Origin: an uncultured Gammaproteobacteria bacterium
GTDB taxonomy: Bacteria; Patescibacteriota; Patescibacteriia; Magasanikbacterales; GWA2-37-8
Direction of reading: 5' to 3'
Assembly (NCBI GenBank): GCA_964536615.1
Contig: CAZHYG010000001.1
Coordinates: 134,200-198,199 of the forward strand
DNA: 64,000 nt
Both the position numbers and the translations under genes were made by a program. The notes beneath the pieces are model-generated. The model was not told the origin of the DNA and searched no databases. It saw only the letters and a program-made list of their open reading frames with translations. Of the stretch, positions 7,135 to 56,364 are shown one piece after another (position 1 is the stretch's first letter; each line of letters starts with the position of its first letter).

Positions 7135-7513
7135 ATAAGATTCCGTAAAATACTAACAAAGGCAGCGCCAGCCATAACAGAAAAAATAAAAAACAGCAGG
7201 CCAGCCAAACCGCTAAAGCAGCAGTGCGAAAAATAATCTGAACCAAACGCATAAAAAAACTGACAACCCTGCCCTGCCAATCATATTGCCCAAACATCGG
7301 TACAAAAATATGCGTCAACCATATGCCGGGAGCCAGAGTTTCATTGCCGCGCGCCAGCCATAACAAACATCGCTTGCCGGCGCGAACTGCGCCAGCGGTA
7401 TACCACCAAATCGGAAAATAAAAAATATCAAGTATGGCTTCCAAAAATAATTTTTCTAAAATAAGAATCATCATATGACAACATATATAGTATACCATAT
7501 AAGCCCGCAACAA
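7124..7513 (-). CDS. Hypothetical small membrane protein (TTG start in ORF track; internal ATG at 7498 possible)
   Basis: Hydrophobic 129-aa ORF between ftsL and the Clp-like gene. Start codon is non-ATG. No recognisable family. Confidence 0.35.
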   Translation of the reverse strand: MLRAYMVYYICCHMMILILEKLFLEAILDIFYFPIWWYTAGAVRAGKRCLLWLARGNETLAPGIWLTHIFVPMFGQYDWQGRVVSFFMRLVQIIFRTAALAVWLACCFLFFLLWLALPLLVFYGILYGV

Positions 7514-7541
7514 AAAATCCTCAATATGAGGATTTTTTAAG
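7507..7541. terminator. Bidirectional intrinsic terminator downstream of ftsL
   Basis: AAAAAA, then ATCCTCA-ata-TGAGGAT, then TTTTTT. Confidence 0.6.
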
Positions 7542-7558
7542 TGAGATAATATGAAAAA

Positions 7559-7918
7559 TTATTTTTTTGCCATCGCGCTGTTTGCGCTTGCCAAGAACTT
7601 AACATCAGTAACTTCGGTCATTTGAGTTTTTTGCACGCGTGAAGCAATACTGGCCATTGAAGTATTATCTGCAATTTCAACTTCCAGCCTGCGCACATCC
7701 AACTCCAAAGCGCTAGCTTGTTTTTCCAATAAACGCATTTGATAACCGCTGGTAGCTGAAGCGGTAATATTTACCACATAGGCAGCGCCGAAAGATACTA
7801 TAATGGCGCACAAACCAAGCCGTACCACTGGTGAAAATACCCAGGCTGGCAGCAAATCGGATTGGAAAGCTGCAGCAACGGTTCGTAATTTGTATGAAAT
7901 CTGGCGTTTAATGGACAT
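7559..7918 (-). CDS. ftsL: Cell division protein FtsL-like (single-pass membrane, coiled coil)
   Basis: 119 aa with a TM helix and a leucine-zipper-like segment. Sits immediately downstream of rsmH, as in dcw clusters. Confidence 0.6.
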   Translation of the reverse strand: MSIKRQISYKLRTVAAAFQSDLLPAWVFSPVVRLGLCAIIVSFGAAYVVNITASATSGYQMRLLEKQASALELDVRRLEVEIADNTSMASIASRVQKTQMTEVTDVKFLASANSAMAKK

Positions 7919-7928
7919 ATGTATAAAT

Positions 7929-8831
7929 TTATATTTTTTCTATAACTCGTAATTTTGCACTGCGCGCGCGAGGGTTATTTTTTAACTCCTCTTCGCCGGC
8001 TACAATCGGTTTTTTATTTACCAGTCGTATTTTTTTATTTTCTTGTGATTTAAAATATTGTTTTACAATCCTATCCTCCAAAGAATGAAACGTGATAACT
8101 GCCAATCTTCCATGCGGCGCCAAGAGCTCCAGCGCTTCGGGCAAAACTTTTTTAATACTTTCCAGCTCTTGATTGACCTCTATGCGCAGCGCTTGGAATA
8201 CTTTTGTGGCCGGATGAATACCGCCCACCCACGGCACTTCTTTATCTGTTTTTAATTTCTTTCTATATTGGGACAAAATTATTTCAGTTAATTCACCGGT
8301 TGTTTCGATCTGTTTATTTTTTCTATAAAACACTATGGCGGCGGCAATTTCCGCGCTTAACTGTTCTTCTCCCAACATTTTAAAAATCAAATGCAAATCA
8401 TGTTCCGAGTAAGTATTAACTATTTCCGCAGCGGTTTGGCCTTCACCGGCGCTATAACGCATATCCAGAGGCTCATTGTTTAAAAAACTAAACCCTCTCC
8501 CCCGCTCTTCAAACTGCGGTGTGGACCAGCCAAAATCCATGAGCATGCCTTGCACTTCTGTAAAATTGTGCGCAGCGGCAACCGAAGCAATATGCGCAAA
8601 GTTTTCTCGAACCAGCACAGCCCGATCTTCAAAGCGATATAAAAATCGTTTGGCGCGCAAAACCGCTTCGGGGTCTGCATCAACACCAAGCAGCATGCCG
8701 TTTGGAGAAATTTTTTCCAGCATAGCCTCACTATGCCCCGCATCTCCGAGGGTGCAATCAATAACTCGCATTCCTGGCGCTAGTTGTAAAGAACTGATCG
8801 TTTCATCTAATAAAACCGGTACGTGTTTCAT
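7929..8831 (-). CDS. rsmH: 16S rRNA (cytosine1402-N4)-methyltransferase RsmH (MraW)
   Basis: MKHVPVLLDE...IDCTLGDAGHS signature. 300 aa. Follows mraZ. Confidence 0.93.
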   Translation of the reverse strand: MKHVPVLLDETISSLQLAPGMRVIDCTLGDAGHSEAMLEKISPNGMLLGVDADPEAVLRAKRFLYRFEDRAVLVRENFAHIASVAAAHNFTEVQGMLMDFGWSTPQFEERGRGFSFLNNEPLDMRYSAGEGQTAAEIVNTYSEHDLHLIFKMLGEEQLSAEIAAAIVFYRKNKQIETTGELTEIILSQYRKKLKTDKEVPWVGGIHPATKVFQALRIEVNQELESIKKVLPEALELLAPHGRLAVITFHSLEDRIVKQYFKSQENKKIRLVNKKPIVAGEEELKNNPRARSAKLRVIEKI

Positions 8832-8846
8832 AATGCGAATCTATAA

Positions 8847-9278
8847 TTAAACTCCCAATTCCCCCATTTTTTCAGCTATCGTTCCGCTTTCAGCTTCAGT
8901 TTGTTTTTTATAGGCGTTCCACAATTCCTGATCCCAAATTTCCAAACGATTATACAAACCTGCAATTACTAAATTTTTCTTGATACCCGCAAAACTGCGC
9001 AGATATTCAGGCAAAATTACTCTGCCCTGTTTATCCATTTCCACATCCATAGCTCCGGCCAACATTAAACGTGAAAACGCTCTGGTGTTGGATTGGCTAA
9101 TGGGCAAGTTTGCCAATTTCTCAGCAAGTTTTTCCCACTCGGTTTTGGTGTACAAAAACAAACAATTATCCAAACCTCGGGTAACAACCGCCCCTTTGCT
9201 TAAATCACGGCGAAATTTTGCCGGCACAGCCATGCGGCCCTTATCGTCTAAATTGTGGCTATATTCGCCAATGAACAT
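8847..9278 (-). CDS. mraZ: Transcriptional regulator MraZ
   Basis: MFIGEYSHNLDDKGRMAVPAKFR and duplicated MraZ domain. 143 aa. Confidence 0.92.
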   Translation of the reverse strand: MFIGEYSHNLDDKGRMAVPAKFRRDLSKGAVVTRGLDNCLFLYTKTEWEKLAEKLANLPISQSNTRAFSRLMLAGAMDVEMDKQGRVILPEYLRSFAGIKKNLVIAGLYNRLEIWDQELWNAYKKQTEAESGTIAEKMGELGV

Positions 9279-9319
9279 AGATAGAAAGTAGTTTTGTGAA
9301 TTAGAGATACAAGCATTTT

Positions 9320-9337
9320 CCCCACTTCACTCCACTA
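9320..9337 (-). promoter_or_regulatory. Candidate MraZ operator: tandem 5-nt repeats AGTGG-AGTGA-AGTGG upstream of mraZ
   Basis: Minus-strand sequence TAGTGGAGTGAAGTGGGG lies ~45 bp upstream of the mraZ start. MraZ proteins bind short direct repeats of GTGG/TGGG type in other bacteria. Confidence 0.35.
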
Positions 9338-9435
9338 CAATCCATTTTATACCACTTTAAAACACATGTCAACATTTTTATCCATTTTCTAACCCTATTT
9401 TTTTGGCTAACATATAACAAAAAATCCCGCTTGCG

Positions 9436-9460
9436 CGGGACTTGTGGACAACTTTATTTA
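9436..9460 (-). terminator. Intrinsic terminator after the MBL-fold ribonuclease gene
   Basis: On the minus strand, stem TCCCGC/GCGGGA with a GCAA loop, then TTTTTTG. Confidence 0.65.
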
Positions 9461-9467
9461 AAAGCAA

Positions 9468-10817
9468 CTACACTTCAACTTGCACGCCTGGTTCGGCGGG
9501 TTCTGCCAGCACATGTTCTTTTTTAGATAATTTTTCAGCTAAATCTTCCGAGACATTTTCTTCACCGTGATTTAAAATAACTCTTTTCGGCTTGCCTGCA
9601 CCAATCCATGCCAGCAACTTTTCCTGATCCGCATGAGCCGACAACGCGCCAATCGCTTTTACATGGCAGCGCACCGGAATTCTTTCTCCCATAATTTCCA
9701 CCGGCGAATGTCCTTCTAAAATTTTTCTACCCAACGTTCCTTCGGATTGATACCCAACAATTAAAAGCGTATTTCTTTCATCGGATAAATATCTCATGGC
9801 GTGATGTAAAATTCTTCCTCCAGTCATCATGCCCGCGCCGGCGATAATAATTTTTGGCCCAGGCGTACTATTTATTTTTTTAGACTCTTCTTTTGTTTCA
9901 GTCATAACGAGTCCCGGAAAATCAAACAGGTCGTCGCCATTTTTTACAAAACCGGCAGCTTCAGCATCATAATATTTTGTATATTTAAGATAAATACGGG
10001 TTGCTTTGATGGCCAGCGGACTATCTACAAAAATCGGTATGCGCGGCAGCAAATGTTTGCGGTCAACGATTGTATTTAATTCGTAAATAAGTTCTTGGGT
10101 TCTTTCCAAAGAAAAAGACGGGATCATGAGTACGCCTCCGGTAGAAATGGCCGTGGAAATTAAAGCTGTCAGTGTTTCTTCGCGGTTCTTCATTTCTTCA
10201 TGCATGCGATTGCCATATGTTGATTCACATACCAACACATCGATATCCGAAGGCAGTGCTTCCGTGTCTCGCAAAATTGGCACGCGCACATTTCCCACAT
10301 CTCCGGAAAACACAACTTTTTTTCCTTCGGCGCGAATTTCTATAAACGCTGAACCAAAAATATGGCCGGCATCGTGAAAAGTCGCAGATACATCCGGAGC
10401 TATTTCTACAGAGCTGTTATATTCAACCGCCACACATCGCTCCATGACCGCCGCAATGTCGGCTGAATCATACAAAATCTCGGCGCCCTCATATCGATGA
10501 TTGTGAACCATGATTTGCGCCGCGTCTTCTAAAATAAGTTCTAACAGTTCAATGGTTGGGGCTGTAGCAAAAAATTTGCCCTGATAGCCTTGTTTTACCA
10601 AAATTGGCAGCCTGCCTACATGGTCTAAGTGAGCGTGCGTAACAAGCACCGCCTGTAATTGCGCCGGATCAAACTTCAATGGTTCTTTATTTTTTTCTTC
10701 TTTCATATAACCGCCTTGATACATGCCGCAATCAACCAAAAAATACCGCCCGGCTGCTGTAAACATGGTGCATGACCCGGTTACTTCTCCTGCTCCTCCA
10801 TAAAAAGAGATGTTCAT
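9468..10817 (-). CDS. MBL-fold beta-CASP ribonuclease (RNase J/CPSF-like metallo-hydrolase)
   Basis: HAHLDHVGRLP motif, beta-CASP and RNA-metabolising MBL C-terminus. Start placed at MNISFYGGAGEV. The ORF track extends to 10919 with a hydrophobic, AT-rich, probably spurious leader. Confidence 0.8.
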   Translation of the reverse strand: MNISFYGGAGEVTGSCTMFTAAGRYFLVDCGMYQGGYMKEEKNKEPLKFDPAQLQAVLVTHAHLDHVGRLPILVKQGYQGKFFATAPTIELLELILEDAAQIMVHNHRYEGAEILYDSADIAAVMERCVAVEYNSSVEIAPDVSATFHDAGHIFGSAFIEIRAEGKKVVFSGDVGNVRVPILRDTEALPSDIDVLVCESTYGNRMHEEMKNREETLTALISTAISTGGVLMIPSFSLERTQELIYELNTIVDRKHLLPRIPIFVDSPLAIKATRIYLKYTKYYDAEAAGFVKNGDDLFDFPGLVMTETKEESKKINSTPGPKIIIAGAGMMTGGRILHHAMRYLSDERNTLLIVGYQSEGTLGRKILEGHSPVEIMGERIPVRCHVKAIGALSAHADQEKLLAWIGAGKPKRVILNHGEENVSEDLAEKLSKKEHVLAEPAEPGVQVEV

Positions 10818-33099: not shown

Positions 33100-33855
33100 T
33101 TACTGCGCTTCTGCAACTGCTCTTTTAGCAATTACCACCGCGCGAGCATCAACAGTTTTAGAGTTTAAGTTTACAATACCTTCCACGCGAACTGCATCAC
33201 CTACCACAAGGCTTGAAAATACCACGTCGCCTGCACCTTTTAAGGTAAGCTTTGTATTACTGTTTGTTTTAACAGTTAAAGTTCTCTTCTCCTGTTTCAA
33301 AACAAATGTTCCATTGGCAGCGTCAATACTTTCAACAGTACCCTTCCTGTTTAAAATAACATACAGCGAATTATCTTTTACAACTTTTGCTTCAATTACG
33401 CCTTCTTTTGTATATTTAGCTACAACACGAACTTCATCACCAACAGCCATTTCGGAAGCTTTCATTTTACCGCCATAAGCTCGCAACAAAGTTGTTTTTA
33501 CCGTAAGCGTAACCACTAAGTCTTTTTCTTTTTCTGGATATGCAGCGGTGGAGGTTGGCCAGTGTTTTGGAGTTCCTGGCAACACCTTAGTTACGTGTAT
33601 AGTTAATTTTCCAGTTGAAGATGTGGTGGTGGTTAAATCTACCGCAGTCACCGTACCAGCAACGGTAAAGGCGCGAGGCGCTATTTTTAAAGCCTTCTCT
33701 AACTTTTCTTTAGCTTCATCACGACGCTCTTCACGCATCTCTTTTTTAACTTCAAATTTTTCCTTGCCTCTATTTTCTTCTTCTCTGGCAAATGCCGGAG
33801 CAAAAGAACCAAACGCCATAACGGCTACCAGTGTTAAGATTATGTATTTTTTCAT
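33100..33855 (-). CDS. Secreted beta-rich repeat protein (DUF5666-like), module 1 cargo
   Basis: Signal peptide MKKYIILTLVAVMAFGSFAPAFA. Repeated GTV..VD...GTF..VGD.V.V segments. 251 aa. Confidence 0.5.
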   Translation of the reverse strand: MKKYIILTLVAVMAFGSFAPAFAREEENRGKEKFEVKKEMREERRDEAKEKLEKALKIAPRAFTVAGTVTAVDLTTTTSSTGKLTIHVTKVLPGTPKHWPTSTAAYPEKEKDLVVTLTVKTTLLRAYGGKMKASEMAVGDEVRVVAKYTKEGVIEAKVVKDNSLYVILNRKGTVESIDAANGTFVLKQEKRTLTVKTNSNTKLTLKGAGDVVFSSLVVGDAVRVEGIVNLNSKTVDARAVVIAKRAVAEAQ

Positions 33856-33951
33856 ATTTTATATTTAACTTTAATGAATAAATTAATTATTAATAACACT
33901 GTTATCGACCCTCTTAGCTCGAACAAATATTCGAGATAAACAGCAATTTGT

Positions 33952-34674
33952 TTAATTATTCTTCAAATACGTGCTCGGATTTTTTTCTTGCAGTTCTTCC
34001 AAGCGTTTTTTTCTTTCTTCAAGCCGCTTTTCAATTTTTGCTCTAATTTCTTTTTGGCGTTCAGTATTTTTTTCAGCAAGCTCTTCCATCAATTCTCTCG
34101 CTTTTTCTAATTTTTTTTCGGTATTATCAATACTGCGATTGATTTTTCTTACTTGCTCGCCTTCGTCGTTATTATCAATGTCGCGCGCCTGTTTGCGAGC
34201 TGTTTCCAGCTTCCGCTTTAGCACATCGCCTGTTTTCTCGTCCATATCTGTGGTAGTAGCCACCTGAATAGCTTCGTCTTTTTCTTCCAGCGCCACAGGC
34301 TTCTTTTTCTTTAAGACTAATCGTTCTTTTTCTCGGCGTTCAATTTGCTTCAGGTAAAACGCCGCTTTAGATTCCGGGGTAAATTTAGTGGCTTCTTCTA
34401 CGCGCTCCATAGCTTCTTTAACCGGAAATAATACGCTCCCTTCGGTTACCTCTGGACTGGCATACGCATATGCACCGCTACTGGTAGCCAGAATAACCAC
34501 CAAAAGAGCACTGGCCGCTATACGATGTACGAGTACAGCTTGGTACCATGGTGTTTTGCCAAAAGAACCATCCCAAGCAGACATTAAATCTGCACGTAGC
34601 TGTTTTTTAAATACAGAATCGGGCTTAACAGATCTTTTTAGTTTAAATAAGTTGTATTTTATTTTAAAACTCAT
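33952..34674 (-). CDS. Membrane-anchored anti-sigma-factor-like protein (DUF5667-like), module 1
   Basis: Overlaps the upstream ECF sigma gene by 4 nt. Short cytoplasmic N-terminus, one TM helix, then a coiled-coil periplasmic region. Paralogous to the 53686..55041 product. Confidence 0.55.
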   Translation of the reverse strand: MSFKIKYNLFKLKRSVKPDSVFKKQLRADLMSAWDGSFGKTPWYQAVLVHRIAASALLVVILATSSGAYAYASPEVTEGSVLFPVKEAMERVEEATKFTPESKAAFYLKQIERREKERLVLKKKKPVALEEKDEAIQVATTTDMDEKTGDVLKRKLETARKQARDIDNNDEGEQVRKINRSIDNTEKKLEKARELMEELAEKNTERQKEIRAKIEKRLEERKKRLEELQEKNPSTYLKNN

Positions 34675-35180
34675 ATACGTGATGACATTTTTTTGACAGC
34701 TCGATGCGCCGCCACTTTTACTGCCGATTCAGTCATCTGCTTCATTTCGGCAATCTCTGCATAACTATACCCATAAATATAGTGAAAGGTTACAATCTCT
34801 CGACTAGACTCGTCCAGCTCATCCAAAAACTCCTGCACAAAACGGGCGTTTTCATTCTTTTTAAATACATTTTTAGCAGAAATTAGCCAAAAAGAGTCGA
34901 GCACCTCACCGTCCTCATCCTGGGGTAAATCCGCAACAGGTTTAGTATCGCGGTAATAGTTAATAACATGATTTTTAGCAATTGTCATCAGCCATGCGGA
35001 TTTACTAACCGTCTCATCATAATCCGCAAAGTTTTTAAGCGCTTTCATAAATATCTCCGAAACTAAATCTTGCGCCAATTCTTTATCGCAATTAACGCGA
35101 AAAAAAACAAAGCGATACACTTTGTCTATATGATCGAGATAAAACCGCTCAAAAGCTTGTTTTGTATGTTTGTTAGACAT
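34671..35180 (-). CDS. ECF-type RNA polymerase sigma-70 factor, module 1
   Basis: Sigma70 region 2 (DLVSEIFMKALKNFADY...WLMTIAKNHVINYYR) and region 4 HTH (YSYAEIAEMKQMTESAVKVAAHRAVKK). 169 aa. Confidence 0.85.
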   Translation of the reverse strand: MSNKHTKQAFERFYLDHIDKVYRFVFFRVNCDKELAQDLVSEIFMKALKNFADYDETVSKSAWLMTIAKNHVINYYRDTKPVADLPQDEDGEVLDSFWLISAKNVFKKNENARFVQEFLDELDESSREIVTFHYIYGYSYAEIAEMKQMTESAVKVAAHRAVKKMSSRI

Positions 35181-35189
35181 GAATACGGG

Positions 35190-36263
35190 CTAAAGCTCCG
35201 TTCGCAATTCTTCTAGGCGTTTTCTAGTGTCTTTATGTATCTTTTTAGGAACTCTGATTTTTATTTTAACATAATGATCTCCACGATTACCACCTCCTAG
35301 TTTATTCATGCCTTTATGCTTAATACGAATCAACTGCCCCGATTCAACACCTTCTGGCACAACCAATGTCACTAACTCATCAAGAGTTTGCACTTGAATT
35401 TTATCTCCCAATACTGCCTGTACAAAACTAATTTCCTGTTCTGTGTACACATCTGAACCGTCTCGCGAAAAACCGGATAACGGTTTTACACGCACGCGCA
35501 CATACAGACTACCGGGTACACCGCCAAACGGAGCTGCCTCACCATAGCCATCTAAACGAATAGACTGACCACTTTCTATTCCGCCTGGTATTTTAATTTT
35601 AATATTTGAATTGCTTTGTATTACTCCAGAACCATGGCAATGCTTGCATTTTTTTGCAGGTTTTTCTCCTCTACCCTGGCACGCATCACAAGGAGCCGCG
35701 GCTTGCATCGCGCCCAAAAAAGTGTGCTGTATTTTAGTTACCTGTCCGCGACCGTTACATGTAGAGCATTTTTCCATTTTTGAACCTGGTTCTGCTCCAG
35801 ATCCATGACAAATATCACATGCGTTCTGCTTGCGCAGTGTAATTTCTTTTTCCGCGCCAAATGCAGCTTCTTTAAAATCTATTTCTACATCTACCTGAAT
35901 GTCTTGTCCGCGATTTTGGCGATGCCCCCCTCGACCGCCGCCAAATAAATCACCGAAAATATCACCAAAATCTCCTCCGGCAAAACCACCGCCCCTGAAC
36001 GCACTCATAACATCTTCCCAACCAGCCCCATTGCTAAAACCGCCCTGCTGTTCAAAATCAGAGCCAAACTGGTCATAACGCTGTCGTTTTTCCGCATCAC
36101 TTAGGACTTGATATGCTTCATTTATCTCTTTAAACTTCGCCTCATCTCCGCCTGGTCGGTCTGGATGGTGCTGCATGGCTGCTTTTTTAAAGGCTTTTTT
36201 TATTTCATCGGCAGAAGCATTTTTTTCTACACCGAGAATTTTGTAATAATCTTTGTTGGCCAT
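35190..36263 (-). CDS. dnaJ: Chaperone DnaJ
   Basis: J domain (KDYYKILGV...HPDR), G/F region, four CxxCxGxG zinc repeats and C-terminal domains. Start at MANKDYY. The ORF track extends to 36293. Confidence 0.93.
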   Translation of the reverse strand: MANKDYYKILGVEKNASADEIKKAFKKAAMQHHPDRPGGDEAKFKEINEAYQVLSDAEKRQRYDQFGSDFEQQGGFSNGAGWEDVMSAFRGGGFAGGDFGDIFGDLFGGGRGGHRQNRGQDIQVDVEIDFKEAAFGAEKEITLRKQNACDICHGSGAEPGSKMEKCSTCNGRGQVTKIQHTFLGAMQAAAPCDACQGRGEKPAKKCKHCHGSGVIQSNSNIKIKIPGGIESGQSIRLDGYGEAAPFGGVPGSLYVRVRVKPLSGFSRDGSDVYTEQEISFVQAVLGDKIQVQTLDELVTLVVPEGVESGQLIRIKHKGMNKLGGGNRGDHYVKIKIRVPKKIHKDTRKRLEELRTEL

Positions 36264-36273
36264 AATTCTAAAT

Positions 36274-36744
36274 TTAAGCTCCTCCCAAAACAAGTTTCGA
36301 AATTTCTTTTATTCTGTCTTGCAAATTTTGTACTGCAATTTTTTTACCTTTTTCATCAAATTTAACATGTGCATTATACACTTTTTGTGCTGGATTTTTA
36401 TTATTCAACCAAGCTCCAAAATAAATCTTTGATTCTTTGCCTGTTGCTTTGGCATGCGCAATAGATAGCTGGACTTTTTGATCAAGCTCCTTACAACACT
36501 GAAATAATACATCCAACTCAGCCTTAACAGCACCACTGTCTAATTCTTTGCTACGTATTTGCTGAATTTCACGAAAAATACTTTTAAACTGCCCCCAAAT
36601 CAGCAGGTCTTCCTCATCTAATTGAGCAGTATCGCGCACGCTTGCAGCCGTTGCATCTGTTTCTCTAATTTTTTCAATAATACTTTTAATTTCCATCCGA
36701 AAAGACTCTAGCCTAGCAGTTTCTGATTCATAATGCTCTGACAT
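36274..36744 (-). CDS. Hypothetical alpha-helical protein inserted between dnaK and dnaJ
   Basis: 156 aa, no known family. Weak similarity to the adjacent 147-aa ORF (shared FRxEI and KxxGKxxxIAQ segments). 10-bp spacer to dnaJ implies co-transcription. Confidence 0.45.
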   Translation of the reverse strand: MSEHYESETARLESFRMEIKSIIEKIRETDATAASVRDTAQLDEEDLLIWGQFKSIFREIQQIRSKELDSGAVKAELDVLFQCCKELDQKVQLSIAHAKATGKESKIYFGAWLNNKNPAQKVYNAHVKFDEKGKKIAVQNLQDRIKEISKLVLGGA

Positions 36745-36756
36745 AATAAAAACTAA

Positions 36757-37200
36757 TTATAACACGCCAAATGTTTCTAACTGCTGCGCTAAATCTTGTT
36801 TAGTTTCAGCAAAATTACTGCGATCATCAATACTCTCTAAACTATAAGCAAGCGTACTTAAGACATTGACTATCCAATTTGAAAAAATATGCCTGCTGTT
36901 TAATACATCACCCGGATCATTTGAAAAAATATCTTCTAGATCGCGCTTAACCTTTAAGTGATATTCCTCGCTATTTTTAATATCAGAAAAATTATCTGCA
37001 TCTTTTACGGTATTATAAAAATTTTTAATAATCTCCTTACTTCTTTCCCACATCTGCATTTCTTTTAACCCTAATTCATTTACATCTACTTGAGCAATTG
37101 TTCCATCTTTACCATGTAATTTATCTTTTAAAGCTTGTATTTCCGCCCTAAACGGGCGCAGCACAGCCTCTTTACCAACCTCAATCGCTGATTCTTTCAT
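36757..37200 (-). CDS. Hypothetical alpha-helical protein inserted between dnaK and dnaJ
   Basis: 147 aa, no known family. Probable paralogue of 36274..36744. Confidence 0.45.
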   Translation of the reverse strand: MKESAIEVGKEAVLRPFRAEIQALKDKLHGKDGTIAQVDVNELGLKEMQMWERSKEIIKNFYNTVKDADNFSDIKNSEEYHLKVKRDLEDIFSNDPGDVLNSRHIFSNWIVNVLSTLAYSLESIDDRSNFAETKQDLAQQLETFGVL

Positions 37201-37217
37201 AGAATAAAGACAGGATA

Positions 37218-37241
37218 ACCCGCCCCTATTACGGGGCGGGT
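37218..37241 (-). terminator. GC-rich hairpin immediately after dnaK (possible intra-operon attenuator)
   Basis: ACCCGCCCC-tattac-GGGGCGGGT is a perfect 9-bp GC stem. The U-tract on the minus strand is interrupted (UAUCCUGUCUUU). Confidence 0.4.
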
Positions 37242-37254
37242 TGCTAAATTATAA

Positions 37255-39156
37255 TTATTTTACCACTTCGCCTTCAATCGGGCCTTGTTCATCTTTTTTT
37301 TCTTCTCCACCCGAAGCCGCAGCGTCAGCGCCTGGCTGGCCAGCCTGTCCGGCTTGGTACATTTTAGCGCCAACTGCCTGAGCAACTTTGGATAGCTCTT
37401 CTGATGTTTTTTTAATCGCCTCTACGTCATCTTTATCTTTAACTTCTTTTACCGCTTTTAAGGCGTCATTAATTTTATTTTTTTCATCGTCAGTAACTGC
37501 CACTTTTTTCTCTTCTACTTCTTTCATCATTTTTTCAGTGGTATATACCATGGTATCGGCAATATTACGTGCCTCAATAAGCTCCTGTTTCTTTTTGTCT
37601 TCAGTCGCATGCACCTCTGCGTCTTGTTTCATTTTTTCCACTTCTTCTTTAGATAAACCAGTAGACGCTTCAATACGAATTGACTGTTCCTTATTGGTTG
37701 CCTTATCTTTAGCCTTCACATTTAAAATACCGTTAGCGTCAATATCAAAAGTTACTTCTACCTGTGGCACGCCGCGCGGAGCCGGTGGAATACCATCCAA
37801 AATAAATCGGCCGAGTGTTTTGTTGTCAGCGGCCATAGGGCGCTCGCCTTGCAACACATTAATTTCTACCGCTGGCTGATTGTCCGCTGCTGTAGAAAAT
37901 ACTTGGCTCTTAGAAGTTGGAATAGTGGTATTGCGTTCAATAAGCTTGGTCATTACCCCACCCATAGTTTCAAGACCAAATGATAGCGGAATAACATCAA
38001 GCAACAACACATCATGCACCTCACCTTTGAGCACACCCGCTTGCACAGCCGCACCAATAGCCACCACCTCATCCGGATTCACACTAATATTTGGTTTTTT
38101 GTTGAAAAACTTTTCTACAATTTGCAACACAAGCGGCATGCGAGTCATACCACCAACCATTACAACTTCATGCAAATCATTAGCTGATAATTTTGCATCT
38201 TCCAACGCCTTGCGAACTGGCACCAGTGTTTTCTCCACCAAATCACCAACCAACTCTTCCAATTTAGCGCGTGTTAATTTCATTACCAAGTGTTTTGGTC
38301 CGGAAGAATCAGAGGTAATAAACGGCTGATTAACTTCGGTTTCTTGAGCGGTAGAAAGCTCAATTTTGGCTTTTTCCGCGGCCTCTTTAATGCGCTGCAA
38401 TGCCAACGGATCTTTGCTCAAATCAATACCCTGGTCTTTTTTAAATTCTTCCAAAATCCATGAGATTATTTTTTGGTCAAAATCATCGCCGCCCAAATGA
38501 GTGTCGCCATTAGTGGATAATACCTGAACTGTATCGGCGCTAACTTCCAAAATAGAAATATCAAAGGTACCACCGCCCAAATCGTAGACTGCAATCTTTT
38601 GATCTTTTTTCTTATCAAAACCATATGCCAATGCGGCTGCGGTTGGTTCGTTAATAATACGCAATACATTTAAGCCTGCGATAGTGCCTGCGTCTTTAGT
38701 AGCCTGTCTTTGCGAATCATCAAAATATGCCGGCACAGTAATAACGGCTTCAGTGATTTTTTCTCCTAATTTTTCTTCTGCATCGCTTTTTAACTTTTGC
38801 AATACCATGGCAGAAATTTCTTGAGGGGTATATTCTTTGCCCTGCATTTCAATTTTTACCTTGTCATCACTTTTGATAATTTTAAACGGCAATAACGACA
38901 AATCGCGCTGCACTTCAGCATCTTCAAAACGGCGGCCAATAAGGCGCTTCACTGAATACAAAGTATTTTGCGGGTTAGTTACGGCTTGGCGCTTAGCCAA
39001 TTGACCTACTAATCGCTCACCTGCTTTAGACATTGCAACAATGGAAGGAGTGGTGCGATTACCTTCTTTATTTTCTAACACTTTTGGCTGCCCACCTTCG
39101 ATGACTGCGACACAGCTGTTGGTGGTACCAAGATCAATTCCGAGAACTTTAGACAT
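37255..39156 (-). CDS. dnaK: Chaperone DnaK (Hsp70)
   Basis: [26 protein letters not shown] and IVLVGG signatures, plus substrate-binding and lid domains. 633 aa. Confidence 0.96.
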
Positions 39157-39210
39157 ATGAATGAATTTAAATTAAACTTATTTAAAACAAATAGGATTAT
39201 TTATGAGTAA

Positions 39211-40218
39211 TTAAATACCCTCTAACAGACTAATTGAATTAGGATCTCTTAACAGAGTTTCTAAAGCTTTTTTGTAATCATGCATTTTACGCTCTTTTCT
39301 TCTAGCTCCGGAATTATAATCTTCTAGCAAGCCGCGGACCGTGTCTAAACTTACATGTTTTTCCTGTAATAACGAAAGCAGGGCTTTTTGATCTTCCAGA
39401 CTTTCGTCTATCATATCTTCCACATCATAGAATGGCTCATAAACGCTCTGCTCATCAATAACAGCCTGTACTTTATTTTTCAAATCTTGAGATGCAGATT
39501 TGCTTGTCTGATACCGCTTACCAACTTCCGCAATTAAATACGGATTTATTCCGCCGCTTCTAACCATTTTCAAAATTTCTTTTGGTGATTTTGAATTTAA
39601 AATATACGCAATCTTCCTCAGTACATAGTATGAACGGGGCGAATCATTATTAAGAGAAACATGTTCGCTTAAATTATAATCTAACTTATCTATCGCCCTA
39701 AGGACTTCAACTATTTTGAAAAAATTAGAATTATTCTTATACGCTTTATTCTGCGCATATCTTTCCAGCAAACGGAGTAAAACCGTATAATTAATAACAC
39801 CTTGAGTATCAGCAGAGCGAGTTTTATCTATCCTACCACCAACTAACGCAACCAAATCTTTTGCGCTCGTATCTTTCACGATAGCCTCGACATCATTTAA
39901 AACTTTATCAAATGTTGGGTGTAAATCATCTACAGATGAAGCAAAGTCACTGGCTGTCAAACCAGCACCCTCCCCACCCAAAGTACGCTGCACACTTGGA
40001 AAACCAAAACTTAGTTCTACAGCTCCAGCACTTTCGCTAGACGACTGATCAGCAACTTGATTTTCATCAATCACTACAGTGGTGCGCCCATCTTCGGAAT
40101 CAAAGGCAATATCCCTACTAACTTGCTCTGGACTTTCAGGAGACTGTAAGCGATCAAATGCTTCTTCAATATCATGCTCATCAGGCAATTCACCTGATAA
40201 CGGTCTGCGCTCACTCAT
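39211..40218 (-). CDS. Hypothetical protein inserted between grpE and dnaK (acidic disordered N-terminus, helical C-terminal half)
   Basis: 335 aa with no recognisable domain. Spacers of 4 bp to grpE and 54 bp to dnaK imply it is in the operon. Confidence 0.45.
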   Translation of the reverse strand: MSERRPLSGELPDEHDIEEAFDRLQSPESPEQVSRDIAFDSEDGRTTVVIDENQVADQSSSESAGAVELSFGFPSVQRTLGGEGAGLTASDFASSVDDLHPTFDKVLNDVEAIVKDTSAKDLVALVGGRIDKTRSADTQGVINYTVLLRLLERYAQNKAYKNNSNFFKIVEVLRAIDKLDYNLSEHVSLNNDSPRSYYVLRKIAYILNSKSPKEILKMVRSGGINPYLIAEVGKRYQTSKSASQDLKNKVQAVIDEQSVYEPFYDVEDMIDESLEDQKALLSLLQEKHVSLDTVRGLLEDYNSGARRKERKMHDYKKALETLLRDPNSISLLEGI

Positions 40219-40222
40219 ATAA

Positions 40223-40744
40223 TTATTTATTAATAATAACTCGTGCCGGTTTAATGATTTTATCTCCTCGCTTGTATCCGCCTTCTACTTCTTTGAGCAC
40301 TGCTCCGGATTCGGTGTTGCCAGATTCTTCTTCGCCAATAGCTTCGTGCAGGCGCGGATCAAATTTTTCACCAACTGTTTTTATTTCTTCAACCTGATAA
40401 CTTTTTAAAATATCTCCAAACTGTTTTTTGATATACCCTATGCCATCCGCCCATTGCTGCCAGCCATTTTCCGAGGACATGCTGTCTTTATGGGCAAAGG
40501 CTTTTTTAAAATTTTCATACACTGGAATAAATTCTTCTAAAATATATTCCTCGCTGGCTTTGGCCCAAATACCGCGCATGTCGGCTGTTTCTTTTTGCAG
40601 ATTTTTATAATCTGCCAAGGCGCGCTGCCAACCAGATTTGTATTCTTCCATTTCAGTTTTACATTTTTCACAATTTTCACAAGCTGGCTTATCTGGATTT
40701 TCTGGTACAATTTGTTCGTCGGGCAATATTTGTTCATCAGTCAT
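40223..40744 (-). CDS. grpE: Nucleotide exchange factor GrpE
   Basis: Coiled-coil region GWQRALADYKNLQKE and C-terminal beta-domain FDPRLHEAIG. 173 aa. Confidence 0.88.
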   Translation of the reverse strand: MTDEQILPDEQIVPENPDKPACENCEKCKTEMEEYKSGWQRALADYKNLQKETADMRGIWAKASEEYILEEFIPVYENFKKAFAHKDSMSSENGWQQWADGIGYIKKQFGDILKSYQVEEIKTVGEKFDPRLHEAIGEEESGNTESGAVLKEVEGGYKRGDKIIKPARVIINK

Positions 40745-40759
40745 ACGAGTAAAAGCTAT

Positions 40760-41440
40760 TTAAATAATCTCCAATAATTTTTTAATTAGACTAAAATTAT
40801 ATTTATAATCCATGCGCTTTGGCCCAAGCAGCGCCACCATGCCTTCTTTACCAAATCGCGCCGACACCACACTCAGTGTTTCATCAAACGGATTCTCGCT
40901 GCCAATAAAGTAACGCGGCGAATCTTCTACCTTATCAAAAAAATCTTCTAGATAATCTTCAAAATGATCAAATACCTGAGAAACATTAGCCACCCTATTT
41001 ACATCCGCAAATTCTGATTTATTAAACAAATTAGACAAACCTGTATAATATATTTTTTCTGGTGAAAAAGCGATTATAACTGTTTCGTTAGAAAGGTCTT
41101 TGGCAGCTTTGGCCAATCTTTTTCTAGCCAGCTCGTAATCTTCAATCGCCGCCACCGCATTAACCAAGGACTGAAAATCATTTTTAGGAATATTGCTATT
41201 TTCTAAATTTAGCTGATCTACATAATATCTATATCCTTTTTCGGTTGGGATTCTGCCAGCCGATGTGTGCGGATGAGTTAAGAAACCCTCTTCTTCAAGT
41301 TCGCGCAATTCATTTCGGACTGTCGCTTCACCAAAGTCAAGCTCGCCAATGGAAACCAAAAATTTAGAACCGATTGGCTCTGCATTTTTGATATAATGTT
41401 CTATTACCATGGTAAGCAACTGATGTTTGCGGCTATCCAT
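40760..41440 (-). CDS. hrcA: Heat-inducible transcriptional repressor HrcA (short form)
   Basis: N-terminal wHTH (EHYIKNAEPIGSKFL...ATVRNELRELEEEGFL). 226 aa, shorter than the typical ~340-aa HrcA. Confidence 0.8.
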   Translation of the reverse strand: MDSRKHQLLTMVIEHYIKNAEPIGSKFLVSIGELDFGEATVRNELRELEEEGFLTHPHTSAGRIPTEKGYRYYVDQLNLENSNIPKNDFQSLVNAVAAIEDYELARKRLAKAAKDLSNETVIIAFSPEKIYYTGLSNLFNKSEFADVNRVANVSQVFDHFEDYLEDFFDKVEDSPRYFIGSENPFDETLSVVSARFGKEGMVALLGPKRMDYKYNFSLIKKLLEII

Positions 41441-41488
41441 ATAAACAGAGATAAAAAATTTTACTTGGGTAAATCGGTTCTGAACATA

Positions 41489-41515
41489 TTATCACTCAAC
41501 TCTCATGAGTGATAA
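41489..41515. promoter_or_regulatory. CIRCE-like operator (TTATCACTC-N9-GAGTGATAA) upstream of hrcA
   Basis: Perfect 9-bp inverted repeat with 9-nt spacer, 49 bp upstream of the hrcA start. Canonical CIRCE is TTAGCACTC-N9-GAGTGCTAA. A possible -35 TTATCA lies in the left arm. A TAATAT -10 follows the right arm on the minus strand. Confidence 0.7.
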
Positions 41516-41527
41516 TATATCATACCA

Positions 41528-41552
41528 AAAAACCCTCGTCAAGAGGGTTTTT
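41528..41552. terminator. Bidirectional intrinsic terminator separating the SPFH gene from the hrcA operon
   Basis: AAAAAA, then CCCTC-gtcaa-GAGGG, then TTTTTTT. Confidence 0.7.
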
Positions 41553-41569
41553 TTGCCTTATTTTAGAGT

Positions 41570-53685: not shown

Positions 53686-55041
53686 TTATGGTTTTATTGC
53701 CGGGGTAGTAGTCGTTTTTATAGGCACTGTTGACGTGGTGGTTGTTACAAACTTAATAGTACTAGACTGACTAAGCACTATGCCAAACACACTTGAACTT
53801 GGCGTAGTTGTAACTGTTGCATTAGTACTACTTGGAACATTCACCACATCGGCAACCGCGGTTACAACCGGCAAGATTTGTTGCACTGCTTTTAAAGTGG
53901 CATCGGTAATTTTTTCCACTTCTGCTGTTGCTGCATTAACTTCTTTAATCTTATCAATTGCGGAAGAAAGATTGTCTTGAGACAACAACTCTTTCCCTTC
54001 ACTTACTGTTTTATCAGTTTCGGTACTTACTTTTTGAAAATTGGTTACAGCTTCTTGTGTTTGTTTTGAGGTTGCTTCAATTTTTTCTGATAACTGTGCG
54101 TTTTCAGCCGTAGTTGTCAGCGAAGTGCTTTTAGTTTCTTTGGCAATAGCGTTTGTCACTTCAGTTTTAACTACATTTATAGCTTTATTTACTTCAGTGA
54201 TACTATCTTTTGACTCAACCACATCTTTAGCTGCGCTTTGAAGTTGGGTGGTAATAGCTTCTTTTACATCGTCTTTAGAAACGGATTCGTCTCCCTGTAA
54301 ATGCTTAACAACCATAACTTCCACAGCTTTGACAGCTGTATCTTTAACAATACTTTTTACTTCTGATACTTGAGTAGCAAGATCGGCAGAATTTTCTTTA
54401 TCAGTACTGACCAATAAATTTACTTTTACTTCTTTTAACACGCCGTTAATTTCTTGAGTATTTTTACTAATATTCTTTACCAAATCCCCCGCCGAATCAT
54501 CTGAAGTTTTAATTTCTTCTAGTTTAGAGTTAATATTTTGAATTTCATTTTTGAGATCATCGACTGTTTGAGCCGCAATCTTTATTTTTTCAGGATTATT
54601 TTGAGAAACAATTGTTTTAGTTTCAACCGCTCGGCGCTTTGCAAATTCAAGATGTAATTTTGCTGCACTGTTAGTATCTCCAACCACCTCAGCTCCTTTA
54701 ACTTGAATGGTTTCAGTAGCCCGTTTAGTGGAATAGAGAAAATCTCCAGGTAAAGCTTGGTATGAAGCGCTCACTGTAGCAACCCAGCTACCCACACCCA
54801 TTGCAAGCACCAGAACAAAAGCAATCACCGGTCGCACTACGCGATGCACAAATGATTGAGGCAGGAATATTGCAAAAAATTCTACAAAGTTATCAAAAGT
54901 CATTTTGCGAGCAGGTTGCGCTGGAACAGTATTTCTAATCTGAGACAACAAAAGCTCGCGGTTATTTTTTAACCACGCTTCATTCGGCTTAACCTCTTTA
55001 TGCCGTAAAGTTTTTAATTGTCTGATTAGAATTTTCGACAT
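53686..55041 (-). CDS. Membrane-anchored anti-sigma-factor-like protein (DUF5667-like), module 2, with long coiled-coil and Thr-rich C-terminal tail
   Basis: N-terminus and post-TM segment align with the 33952..34674 product (L+..VKP...K.R..L.S; L..K.A.E; S.A...L....RR..E). Single TM helix. 451 aa. Confidence 0.55.
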   Translation of the reverse strand: MSKILIRQLKTLRHKEVKPNEAWLKNNRELLLSQIRNTVPAQPARKMTFDNFVEFFAIFLPQSFVHRVVRPVIAFVLVLAMGVGSWVATVSASYQALPGDFLYSTKRATETIQVKGAEVVGDTNSAAKLHLEFAKRRAVETKTIVSQNNPEKIKIAAQTVDDLKNEIQNINSKLEEIKTSDDSAGDLVKNISKNTQEINGVLKEVKVNLLVSTDKENSADLATQVSEVKSIVKDTAVKAVEVMVVKHLQGDESVSKDDVKEAITTQLQSAAKDVVESKDSITEVNKAINVVKTEVTNAIAKETKSTSLTTTAENAQLSEKIEATSKQTQEAVTNFQKVSTETDKTVSEGKELLSQDNLSSAIDKIKEVNAATAEVEKITDATLKAVQQILPVVTAVADVVNVPSSTNATVTTTPSSSVFGIVLSQSSTIKFVTTTTSTVPIKTTTTPAIKP

Positions 55042-55051
55042 ACTTTGACCT

Positions 55052-55633
55052 TTATTTTTTATCCAATAAATTTTTTAATTTTTTTAAACCTCTGTGCAGT
55101 GTCACCCTTACCGCAATAGCTCCCTTGCCCGTAATTTCGGCAATTTCACCCACATCCATCTCATCAACATATCTAAGGGTAATAACTTCTCTATATTCTT
55201 GTTTTAATTTTTTTAGGGCTTTAATAATTTTTTCTATTTCTATCTTCTCCCCAACCTTCTCTTCAATATTCACACTCCAAGCTTCTTTTGTTTCTAGCTC
55301 ATCTTCCAAATCGTCTTCTTCATTCTTTTTTACCAAAGAGATTTCTTTGTGATGTGATTTTTTTCGGTACAGATCTACAATCGCGTTACGCGCCAGCTTG
55401 TATAACAGGCCGCTAAAACTTTCAATTGCCTTTTTTTCACTCACATATCTCCAGGCTTTAAGGAACACCTCTGAAGTAATATCTTCAGCCTCTTCTCTAT
55501 TTGATACTTTAAAAAAAACAAAGCTGTAGATTTGCCCAGCATACATATCATATAGCTTCGCGAACTCTTCAGGATCTTGGTTTACGCGAAGTTTAAACAG
55601 AATGATTTTTTCTGATATTTTGTTACTAGGCAT
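55052..55633 (-). CDS. ECF-type RNA polymerase sigma-70 factor, module 2
   Basis: Region 2 (DITSEVFLKAWRYVSEKK...LYKLARNAIVDLYRKK) and region 4 HTH (MDVGEIAEITGKGAIAVRVTLHRGLKKL). 193 aa. Confidence 0.85.
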   Translation of the reverse strand: MPSNKISEKIILFKLRVNQDPEEFAKLYDMYAGQIYSFVFFKVSNREEAEDITSEVFLKAWRYVSEKKAIESFSGLLYKLARNAIVDLYRKKSHHKEISLVKKNEEDDLEDELETKEAWSVNIEEKVGEKIEIEKIIKALKKLKQEYREVITLRYVDEMDVGEIAEITGKGAIAVRVTLHRGLKKLKNLLDKK

Positions 55634-55707
55634 TAAAGAAGACGTACAAGTAGTAAAAATGTTACACTTCTATTTGTTTGCCTAAACATACAATAAAAGT
55701 GCTCCAT

Positions 55708-55736
55708 ATAATAGCAAAAAACCATTGTTTCGTCAA
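55708..55736 (-). promoter_or_regulatory. Putative sigma70-type promoter for the module-2 ECF sigma gene
   Basis: Minus-strand TTGACG-N17-TATTAT lies ~70 nt upstream of the start codon. The background is AT-rich, so chance matches are common. Confidence 0.35.
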
Positions 55737-55812
55737 ATTGGATAGGTTATTATTTTAAAGAAAAAAACATTATAAAAATTTATTGGTTATAACATGCTTT
55801 GATAATATAAAA

Positions 55813-55835
55813 TTTGTATACACAAGCGTATACAA
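55813..55835. promoter_or_regulatory. Operator-like imperfect palindrome TTTGTATACACAAGCGTATACAA (site 1)
   Basis: Matches site 2 at 22 of 23 positions. TTGTAT-N10-ATACAA architecture. Confidence 0.45.
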
Positions 55836-55870
55836 CTAAAATACTCTCCTGTCCAGTCTGTTCTATAGGT

Positions 55871-55918
55871 AAAATATATCAATTTGTATACACAAGTGTA
55901 TACAAATTGATATATTTT
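55871..55918. promoter_or_regulatory. 48-bp perfect palindrome (23-bp arms, 2-nt spacer) containing TTGTAT-N10-ATACAA (site 2)
   Basis: AAAATATATCAATTTGTATACAC-aa-GTGTATACAAATTGATATATTTT. Verified by reverse-complementing the left arm. Confidence 0.6.
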
Positions 55919-55943
55919 ATACTTAGGTTGCTGCCATAAATGC

Positions 55944-55972
55944 TTGACAAAAAACTAAAATTATGCTATATT
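55944..55972 (+). promoter_or_regulatory. Sigma70-type promoter of the HTH gene (TTGACA-N17-TATATT)
   Basis: Consensus -35 hexamer, 17-nt spacer and near-consensus -10. Site 3 palindrome overlaps the -10 and the start site. Confidence 0.55.
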
Positions 55973-55994
55973 TGTATAGATTAATCTATACAAA
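55971..55994. promoter_or_regulatory. 24-bp perfect palindrome TTTGTATAGATTAATCTATACAAA (site 3) overlapping the promoter -10/+1
   Basis: 12-bp arms with no spacer. Shares the TTGTAT-N10-ATACAA frame with sites 1 and 2. Confidence 0.55.
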
Positions 55995-55998
55995 TTCT

Positions 55999-56364
55999 AT
56001 GGATAAACCAATACAGGCCTCTGACACGGAAAAGCCTAAAGAAGTTATTAGAGTCTCAATCTCTGAGGCAGCCAAGCTTTTTGGTGTAAATTCACAGACA
56101 ATTAGACGAGCTATTGCCGCAAAAGAAATTGTATACATAGTCGTTGCAGGACGATACAAGCTTAACTTTGAAAGCTTAGTAAAGTGGTCTCAACGGCATA
56201 CTACCATTAAAAATAAATTGGAAAATAAAGGTATTGGACAATTTGTAGGAAATTGGAAAATTAAAAACCCCCTATACTCGCCGGCTTATCGCAAACCTTT
56301 ACCCGCTCAACCGACACCAGAAGCAGCGAAACTTTCTGAAAACCCCGAAATTTCCAACCAATAA
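55999..56364 (+). CDS. Excisionase/MerR-superfamily HTH DNA-binding protein (probable autoregulated repressor)
   Basis: ISEAAKLFGVNSQTIRRAIAAKEIVYIVVAGRYKLNFESLVKW matches the excisionase-family HTH_17 pattern. Start set at MDKPIQ, because the ORF-track start at 55963 lies inside the promoter. Pro-rich C-terminal tail. 121 aa. Confidence 0.6.
   Translation: MDKPIQASDTEKPKEVIRVSISEAAKLFGVNSQTIRRAIAAKEIVYIVVAGRYKLNFESLVKWSQRHTTIKNKLENKGIGQFVGNWKIKNPLYSPAYRKPLPAQPTPEAAKLSENPEISNQ

Follow-up and report, generated by a model that had tools for sequence, protein, structure and literature searches.

Lineage-restricted protein families at fixed positions within the hrcA-grpE-dnaK-dnaJ operon of a Magasanikbacteria-like genome

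The stretch of DNA analysed here, 64,000 nucleotides of contig CAZHYG010000001.1 (the window; all positions count from its first letter), carries on its minus strand a heat-shock operon in which three genes of no known family, here called X, Y and Z, are interspersed with the chaperone genes. The array reads promoter, a variant CIRCE element (controlling inverted repeat of chaperone expression), hrcA, grpE, X, dnaK, a GC hairpin, Y, Z and dnaJ. This layout had been put forward in an earlier reading of the sequence (the original prediction), and the map of open reading frames (ORFs) together with Pfam and NCBIfam scans places every element where it had been read. The same prediction took canonical operons to be contiguous, which is overstated, since bacteria are known to differ in what their dnaK/dnaJ operons contain (PMC12077118). 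To judge by named homologues and related contigs, the source is a member of Candidatus Magasanikbacteria (Candidate Phyla Radiation, CPR/Patescibacteria). Related loci, numbered with the prefix L below, were found by a GrpE-based, insert-agnostic scan of metagenomes and annotated with local hidden Markov models (HMMs); an HrcA-based scan of genomes yielded three species only.

The chaperone genes themselves are readily recognised. GrpE (40223-40744, 173 amino acids, aa) matches PF01025 at E 8.3e-37, and DnaK (37255-39156, 633 aa) matches PF00012 at E 1.8e-261 and NF001413 with 990 bits. The product of dnaJ (35190-36263) is a type I DnaJ with a J domain (PF00226, E 6e-25), a G/F region, CxxCxGxG zinc fingers (PF00684) and a C-terminal domain (PF01556), scoring 409 bits against TIGR02349; the listed TTG start at 36293 overlaps Z, and the ATG at 36263 (MANKDYYK) is the plausible start. 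The first gene, hrcA (40760-41440), encodes a short protein of 226 aa that matches PF01628 (E 3.7e-16) and TIGR00331 (E 2.6e-49). Its 168.6 bits against TIGR00331 lie under the 197.2 cutoff, its match to the 215-position PF01628 model is limited to positions 106-212, i.e. the second half, and the N-terminal winged helix-turn-helix alone aligns to PDB entry 1stz. HrcA measures 226-238 aa throughout the clade compared with about 340 aa typically, with some 110 residues seemingly missing. With grpE, dnaK and dnaJ co-directional in that order and hrcA present, the locus has the makeup of an HrcA/CIRCE operon. From hrcA to dnaJ the spacers are 15, 4, 54, 54, 12 and 10 nucleotides (nt); the 54-nt gaps flank dnaK, and the spacers between grpE and X (4 nt), Y and Z (12 nt) and Z and dnaJ (10 nt) are as tight as had been predicted. 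In the AT-rich spacers before X, dnaK, Y and Z (e.g. 40219-40222, 39157-39210 and 36745-36756) no GGAGG-like Shine-Dalgarno sequence is visible.

Upstream of hrcA lies a compact control region. A sigma-70-type promoter-like site (41514-41542, minus strand) comprises TTGACG and TATATT separated by 17 nt, with a TG before the -10 element, and matches the consensus at 10 of 12 positions. The putative operator, TTATCACTC-N9-GAGTGATAA (41489-41515, minus strand), overlaps the -10 hexamer. As a 9-N9-9 palindrome it is perfect; each arm departs from the canonical TTAGCACTC-N9-GAGTGCTAA by one symmetric substitution. It is the sole such site in the window, where chance would provide 0.03 (at most three mismatches). 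The variant CIRCE proposed in the original prediction is real: in 13 of 15 related loci promoter and palindrome keep the same place before hrcA, the promoter-like site again directly upstream of CIRCE, and judged by this conservation the pair is a clade-wide putative control element. A terminator-like site scan also identified the intrinsic terminator hairpin of the upstream Band_7/SPFH gene (41527-41553, minus strand), and the -35 hexamer TTGACG of the heat-shock promoter falls within the loop and 3′ arm of this hairpin. Relatives retain the terminator hairpin with altered stems (CCCTC/GAGGG, GCCTC/GAGGC and CCCCC/GGGGG), and the same compact overlap of terminator and promoter upstream of hrcA is seen in L001, L007, L013 and L015.

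A second element of interest, the GC hairpin predicted after dnaK, likewise proved to be real. The stem-loop AACCCGCCCC-GTAATA-GGGGCGGGTT (37217-37242, minus strand) begins 12 nt past the dnaK stop codon and has a 10-bp stem, a 6-nt loop and a folding energy of -22.6 kcal/mol; its 3′ flank is only moderately T-rich, forming a weak T-tract. The hairpin is kept in L007, L013, L015 and L020, apart from a single C-G pair changed to U-G, is replaced by a hairpin of different sequence at the same place in L019, L026 and L034, is weaker in L037 and is absent in L001. From its sequence, a role as a partial terminator or as a stabiliser of the mRNA is plausible. Immediately upstream of it, a further promoter-like sequence, TTGAAG-18-TATAAT (37248-37277, minus strand), has a -35 element that falls within the codons for the conserved C-terminus of DnaK (PIEGEVVK), and its TATAAT (37248-37253) is retained in L013 and L015. 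An Rfam scan of the operon for RNA thermometers or known leaders produced nothing meaningful.

X (39211-40218, minus strand, 335 aa) combines two dissimilar halves, an acidic disordered N-terminus and a helical remainder, in agreement with the original prediction. Residues 1-101 have a pI of 4.05, contain 23 D/E compared with 6 K/R and are predicted to be disordered (AlphaFold2, AF2, pLDDT below 50); the family alignment reveals one short conserved island in this region, FGFPSVQRTLGG (residues 71-82). The helical part consists of three tandem helix-hairpin repeats of approximately 35-45 aa (residues ~113-160, 206-245 and 276-315) with the rough consensus s-x-x-[DE]-L-V-x-[LM]-V-x-x-G-x-I-[HN]-x-[ST]-V-L-x-R-L-L-x-x-Y. 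Comparison of segment profiles with hhalign relates repeat 1 to repeat 2 at 96.4% probability (E 1.4e-9), repeat 1 to repeat 3 at 85.6% (E 5.6e-6) and repeat 2 to repeat 3 at 63.9% (E 6.6e-5), while a single-repeat HMM lends weaker support to repeats in individual X-family sequences. An exhaustive HMMER search of 1.84e9 proteins finds 13 representative clusters of the family; a word-indexed search for relatives of X had yielded just three close clusters. All 12 members whose context was examined, including the most distant representatives, are located between grpE and dnaK, down to identities of 20-25%. The architecture of the family is variable: L028 and L036 encode 'mini-X' proteins of 102-105 aa with the acidic N-terminus and one repeat, L013 and P0019 have forms with extra repeats, and in L041 X is followed by another gene with weak similarity to X (185 aa, E 7e-6). 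The matches returned by fold searches with X (TM below 0.25 on a model of pLDDT 51) are meaningless, and the model is too poor for an ARM-like fold to be recognised. A relationship between X and the Y/Z family was considered and rejected (hhalign probability 0.1%).

Y (36757-37200, minus strand, 147 aa) and Z (36274-36744, minus strand, 156 aa) are both helical, and the weak paralogy suspected between them holds up at the level of profiles. Pairwise BLAST gives no significant match, whereas profile-profile comparison with hhalign relates the two at 96.3% probability and E 2e-9; by this measure they are paralogues lying in tandem and belong to a small family of predicted helical bundles, in which Y represents one subtype. 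The AF2 model of Z is a confident all-helical bundle (pLDDT 90.7, pTM 0.85). Foldseek searches with this model against PDB and BFVD found no fold match with E below 0.5, and the candidates that did surface, generic or designed four-helix bundles and ferritin-like or HEPN-like folds, were set aside as non-specific (E at least 0.5, TM about 0.4-0.55). A profile search of 5.8e9 proteins finds 13 clusters of the family. All 12 members examined lie after dnaK and directly upstream of dnaJ, in contexts read from the window, L001, L007, L009, L013, L015, L019, L023, L037, L041 and the P0025 contig.

X, Y and Z are genuine genes under purifying selection. In close pairs, dN/dS amounts to 0.09-0.14 for X, 0.14 for Y and 0.24 for Z, compared with 0.01-0.10 for the chaperone genes. 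Homologues at 20-89% identity are found in the same position, and the dnaK-Y-Z-dnaJ arrangement is identical in at least four independent samples. The notion that the three are spurious ORFs or an assembly artefact could draw on their database annotation, which is solely 'hypothetical protein', but selection, positional homologues and recurrence in independent assemblies effectively refute it. The absence of a recognisable family, on the other hand, is borne out in family libraries, PDB and fold searches, as the original prediction had it. Neither X, Y and Z nor 15 members of the X family gave a significant hit in Pfam, NCBIfam, PADLOC and PHROG scans; the best PADLOC and PHROG E values for X, Y and Z (0.0048-0.056) come from partial, low-scoring matches, as do the values of 6.5e-4 and 8.4e-4 obtained with the slot proteins of two relatives. 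A PDB search with both family profiles returned nothing at E below 0.01, the best matches being designed helical proteins. Pfam and NCBIfam contain no nucleotide-exchange factor (GrpE, BAG, HspBP1/Fes1, Hsp110) matching X, Y or Z, and no match to the alpha-crystallin domain (PF00011) was found either. Both families are seen solely in Magasanikbacteria-like contigs, and no further copies of either occur elsewhere in the window; one candidate for an extra X (55055-55669, E 0.007) is an extracytoplasmic function (ECF) sigma factor and hence a chance match. The literature searched holds no paper tying CPR or Magasanikbacteria to the content of dnaK operons, and the X and Y/Z families, the ~40-aa repeat, the position-locking and the cassette replacement described below appear to be undescribed.

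Comparison with relatives yields a two-sided picture of synteny. The families are position-locked in every context examined; at the same time, both junctions are variable and some relatives have contiguous operons. L027, L031 and L032 carry no gene between grpE and dnaK and none between dnaK and dnaJ, while L033 and L034 lack an insert at the former junction and have other singletons at the latter. In L026 the grpE-dnaK slot contains an Hsp20 gene (4383-4835) and two membrane ORFs, and the dnaK-dnaJ slot an unrelated ORF of 158 aa. L023 combines Hsp20 with an HD/DUF4202 protein in its grpE-dnaK slot (8478-9480). The slot genes of L023 and L026 (GrpE 63-67% identical) match the alpha-crystallin domain at E 1e-20 to 7e-22, and because both loci carry Hsp20 there, the grpE-dnaK slot is evidently used for proteostasis genes. 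The two junctions act as slots for optional, lineage-restricted genes in this clade. A third lineage-specific family, 'W' (213-296 aa), was observed in the grpE-dnaK slot of L030 (437-1294), L040 (6881-7522) and L041 (7578-8468). Its members are related to one another at E 1e-47 to 1e-86, the L030 member has no Pfam match, and an N-terminal hydrophobic stretch resembles, by eye, a transmembrane helix.

The dnaK-dnaJ junction also bears signs of exchange. Over the operon the window and L001 are about 90% identical in nucleotide sequence, but this similarity breaks down precisely in the interval from the dnaK stop codon to the dnaJ start codon. At four-fold degenerate sites, Y and Z of the window and of the more distant L007 are identical at 41 of 59 positions (0.69), compared with 182 of 462 (0.39) in the flanks (Fisher p 1.9e-5). 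No significant silent-site excess of Y over the flanks is found for the L013 or L015 pairs, and since it is confined to the window-L007 pair, the argument for recent transfer is suggestive only. Copy number and subtype of Y/Z vary among close relatives. Mosaicism extends to the chaperone genes: between L007 and L013 four-fold-site identity is 0.92 in dnaJ (6568-7650 and 8496-9578, respectively) compared with 0.67 in dnaK, within a range of 0.63-0.78 for hrcA, grpE and dnaK, which suggests recent recombination of dnaJ between lineages and a mosaic operon. Overall, X, Y and Z are dispensable and mobile.

How does this operon compare with known systems? Like the class I operons of B. subtilis and Clostridium, it has the core gene order with hrcA first, a sigma-70-type promoter followed by a 9-N9-9 inverted repeat, and a stem-loop between dnaK and dnaJ. 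It differs from the B. subtilis operon, where yqeT/U/V are appended after dnaJ, in that its three extra genes reside inside the core, and from class I operons generally in its variant palindrome, its 226-aa HrcA and an ECF sigma gene 9 nt behind dnaJ. Among accessory proteins, E. coli CbpM is small, is encoded beside and co-expressed with the J-domain protein CbpA, and specifically regulates CbpA. This may be a parallel to Y and Z directly upstream of dnaJ, except that CbpM follows cbpA while Y and Z precede dnaJ; in the Pfam scan no known family, that of CbpM included, scored for Y or Z. In Thermus, the dnaK operon encodes DafA, a protein of about 8 kDa. DafA resembles Y and Z in being small, lineage-restricted, tied to DnaK and devoid of a J, BAG or GrpE domain, and by analogy would be their nearest functional model; Y and Z, helical bundles of 17-18 kDa, are larger, and the likeness is one of context. 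DafA of Thermus thermophilus joins DnaK and DnaJ in a stoichiometric DnaK3-DnaJ3-DafA3 complex, which substrate displaces (PMC3727329). Chlamydia HagF (CT016/CTL0271) provides another precedent: it is HrcA-repressed and heat-induced, binds HrcA and feeds back on the hrcA-grpE-dnaK circuit, its gene has its own CIRCE-like element and HrcA-bound promoter, and the protein targets HrcA dimerisation (PMC12154930). HagF may be likened to X, Y and Z as a lineage-specific protein of a reduced-genome bacterium, although hagF lies outside the operon.

We tentatively favour an interpretation, drawn from gene context, in which X, Y and Z are optional, are regulated together with the heat-shock genes and modulate the DnaK-DnaJ-GrpE machine or serve it as adaptors. 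No other available argument ties the genes to Hsp70 as strongly as the position-locking of both families; occurring in a CIRCE-controlled Hsp70 operon, and taken together with the short spacers and the Hsp20 genes that relatives carry in the slot, it is the reason for this preference. Co-transcription, heat induction and physical or functional contact with DnaK, DnaJ and GrpE are what we infer in the following model. X, Y and Z would be transcribed with the chaperones from the conserved promoter and CIRCE operator, and hence be heat-induced; the stem-loop after dnaK would lower or partition expression of the distal Y-Z-dnaJ segment; and the proteins would serve as dispensable, fast-evolving modulators or adaptors, with Y and Z acting on or with DnaJ, and X with GrpE or DnaK.

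A number of observations weigh against this interpretation. Pfam and NCBIfam scans detect in X, Y and Z no J domain (PF00226, E up to 1), BAG domain or other known co-chaperone domain, and the structure model of X is poor (AF2 pLDDT 51). The slots also house unrelated genes in relatives (HD/DUF4202, membrane proteins, a CxxC protein), and residence in a slot is therefore no proof by itself of an Hsp70-related function. In a neighbour-joining tree of DnaK, the insert-free loci L031 (DnaK 92% identical) and L032 are nested among carriers, which implies repeated loss and therefore dispensability. The closest relative, L001, is without Y and has a single 158-aa family member that is 34% identical to Z, and L013 and L015 lack Z. 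The original prediction had named absence or poor conservation in close relatives, or a match to ordinary unrelated families, as what would speak against it; the former is found in part, in L001, L013, L015, L031 and L032, while no match to an ordinary family came to light. The C-terminal tail of DnaK, PIEGEVV, is the same with or without inserts, and co-variation of the inserts with DnaK was rejected on these grounds. Finally, the TTGAAG-18-TATAAT sequence could possibly give Y-Z-dnaJ a transcript of its own from an internal promoter. That the genes can be lost, and that their slots accept other genes, argues for viewing X, Y and Z as optional accessory genes rather than integral co-chaperones.

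The main competing explanation, which we consider rather unlikely, is that the three genes are passengers of the stress regulon: stand-alone stress proteins, for instance holdase-like or protective ones, or clients, expressed from a strong CIRCE promoter without acting on DnaK, DnaJ or GrpE. The clearly independent genes in the slots of relatives, now including the putatively membrane-anchored 'W' beside Hsp20, HD/DUF4202, the membrane proteins and the CxxC protein, fit this explanation, as do the repeated loss of the inserts with no visible change in DnaK and the long acidic disordered region of X. What it struggles to explain is the strict locking, with X after grpE and Y/Z just before dnaJ across lineages at 20-40% identity, and the lack of copies elsewhere in the window. 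Alternatively, X, Y and/or Z could bind the short HrcA of this clade and tune de-repression of the operon in the manner of HagF. The precedent of a lineage-specific, HrcA-repressed and HrcA-binding protein (PMC12154930), the 226-aa HrcA with its low score and partial PF01628 match, and the location of the three genes under the CIRCE promoter lend themselves to this idea; we nevertheless regard it as improbable, because HrcA is equally short (226-238 aa) in L031 and L032, which have neither X nor Y/Z, and because neither family adjoins hrcA. Similarly improbable, in our view, is a scenario in which the dnaK-dnaJ junction is a hypervariable cassette locus exchanged by recombination through the dnaK and dnaJ flanks, and Y/Z, perhaps also X, take part in a genetic conflict centred on Hsp70, e.g. 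as guards of the chaperone, or as decoys, when DnaK/DnaJ is hijacked by phage or host factors. Helical-bundle genes swapped in this way are typical of immunity, decoy or addiction functions, and the identity collapse confined to the junction in L001, the silent-site excess shared with L007, the differing copy number and subtype of Y/Z among close relatives and the mosaic dnaJ of L007 and L013 would all be accounted for. Set against these are the lack of PADLOC or PHROG matches and of viral folds in BFVD, dN/dS values within subtypes that are clearly purifying rather than diversifying, the absence of mobile-element genes or repeats flanking the slot, and a silent-site excess that is significant in one lineage pair only.

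Downstream of dnaJ the minus strand continues with an ECF-type sigma factor gene (34671-35180), which begins 9 nt past the dnaJ stop codon, and a DUF5667 protein gene (33952-34674) that overlaps it by 4 nt. The ECF sigma, DUF5667 and DUF5666 genes form a trio (33100-35180) that is found behind dnaJ in most relatives. The ECF sigma and DUF5667 genes may extend the same transcription unit, fusing the heat-shock operon to a sigma/anti-sigma module. Another gene pair of note lies at 53686-55633 (minus strand). By eye, the translation of the first gene looks like a second ECF-like sigma factor (193 aa); the next gene encodes a protein of 451 aa whose C-terminal region is rich in Ser/Thr and which may have a membrane segment. 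The pair falls in the stretch of the window with the lowest GC content (0.34 in 54001-56000). The public record nearest to the window, L017/L001 (CAZLNR010000001.1, GCA_964561035.1; HrcA 96% and DnaK 99% identical), is titled 'uncultured Gammaproteobacteria bacterium', which is likely a taxonomic mislabel given that gene content and relatives indicate Magasanikbacteria.

Few biological machines have been studied as thoroughly as Hsp70, yet to our knowledge GrpE and J-domain proteins account for almost all of its bacterial partners. The small number of lineage-specific additions, DafA, CbpM and HagF, have each exposed a new way of regulating the machine. Our analysis defines two families that are without detectable relatives, confined to one CPR lineage and locked inside the dnaK operon, the Y/Z family with a confident, novel-looking helical-bundle model and X with an undescribed ~40-aa repeat behind an acidic disordered tail. 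Were these proteins mere passengers of the stress regulon, the result would be a modest note on operon plasticity; were they players in a conflict, they would form a new class of immunity or specificity factors tied to chaperones and not be classical co-chaperones. The cassette-like swap between genomes of about 90% identity suggests that accessory modules housed in chaperone operons can be exchanged. If X, Y or Z bind DnaK, DnaJ, GrpE or HrcA, they would reveal how ultra-small and probably symbiotic bacteria customise their proteostasis, and these families would constitute new modulators of Hsp70.

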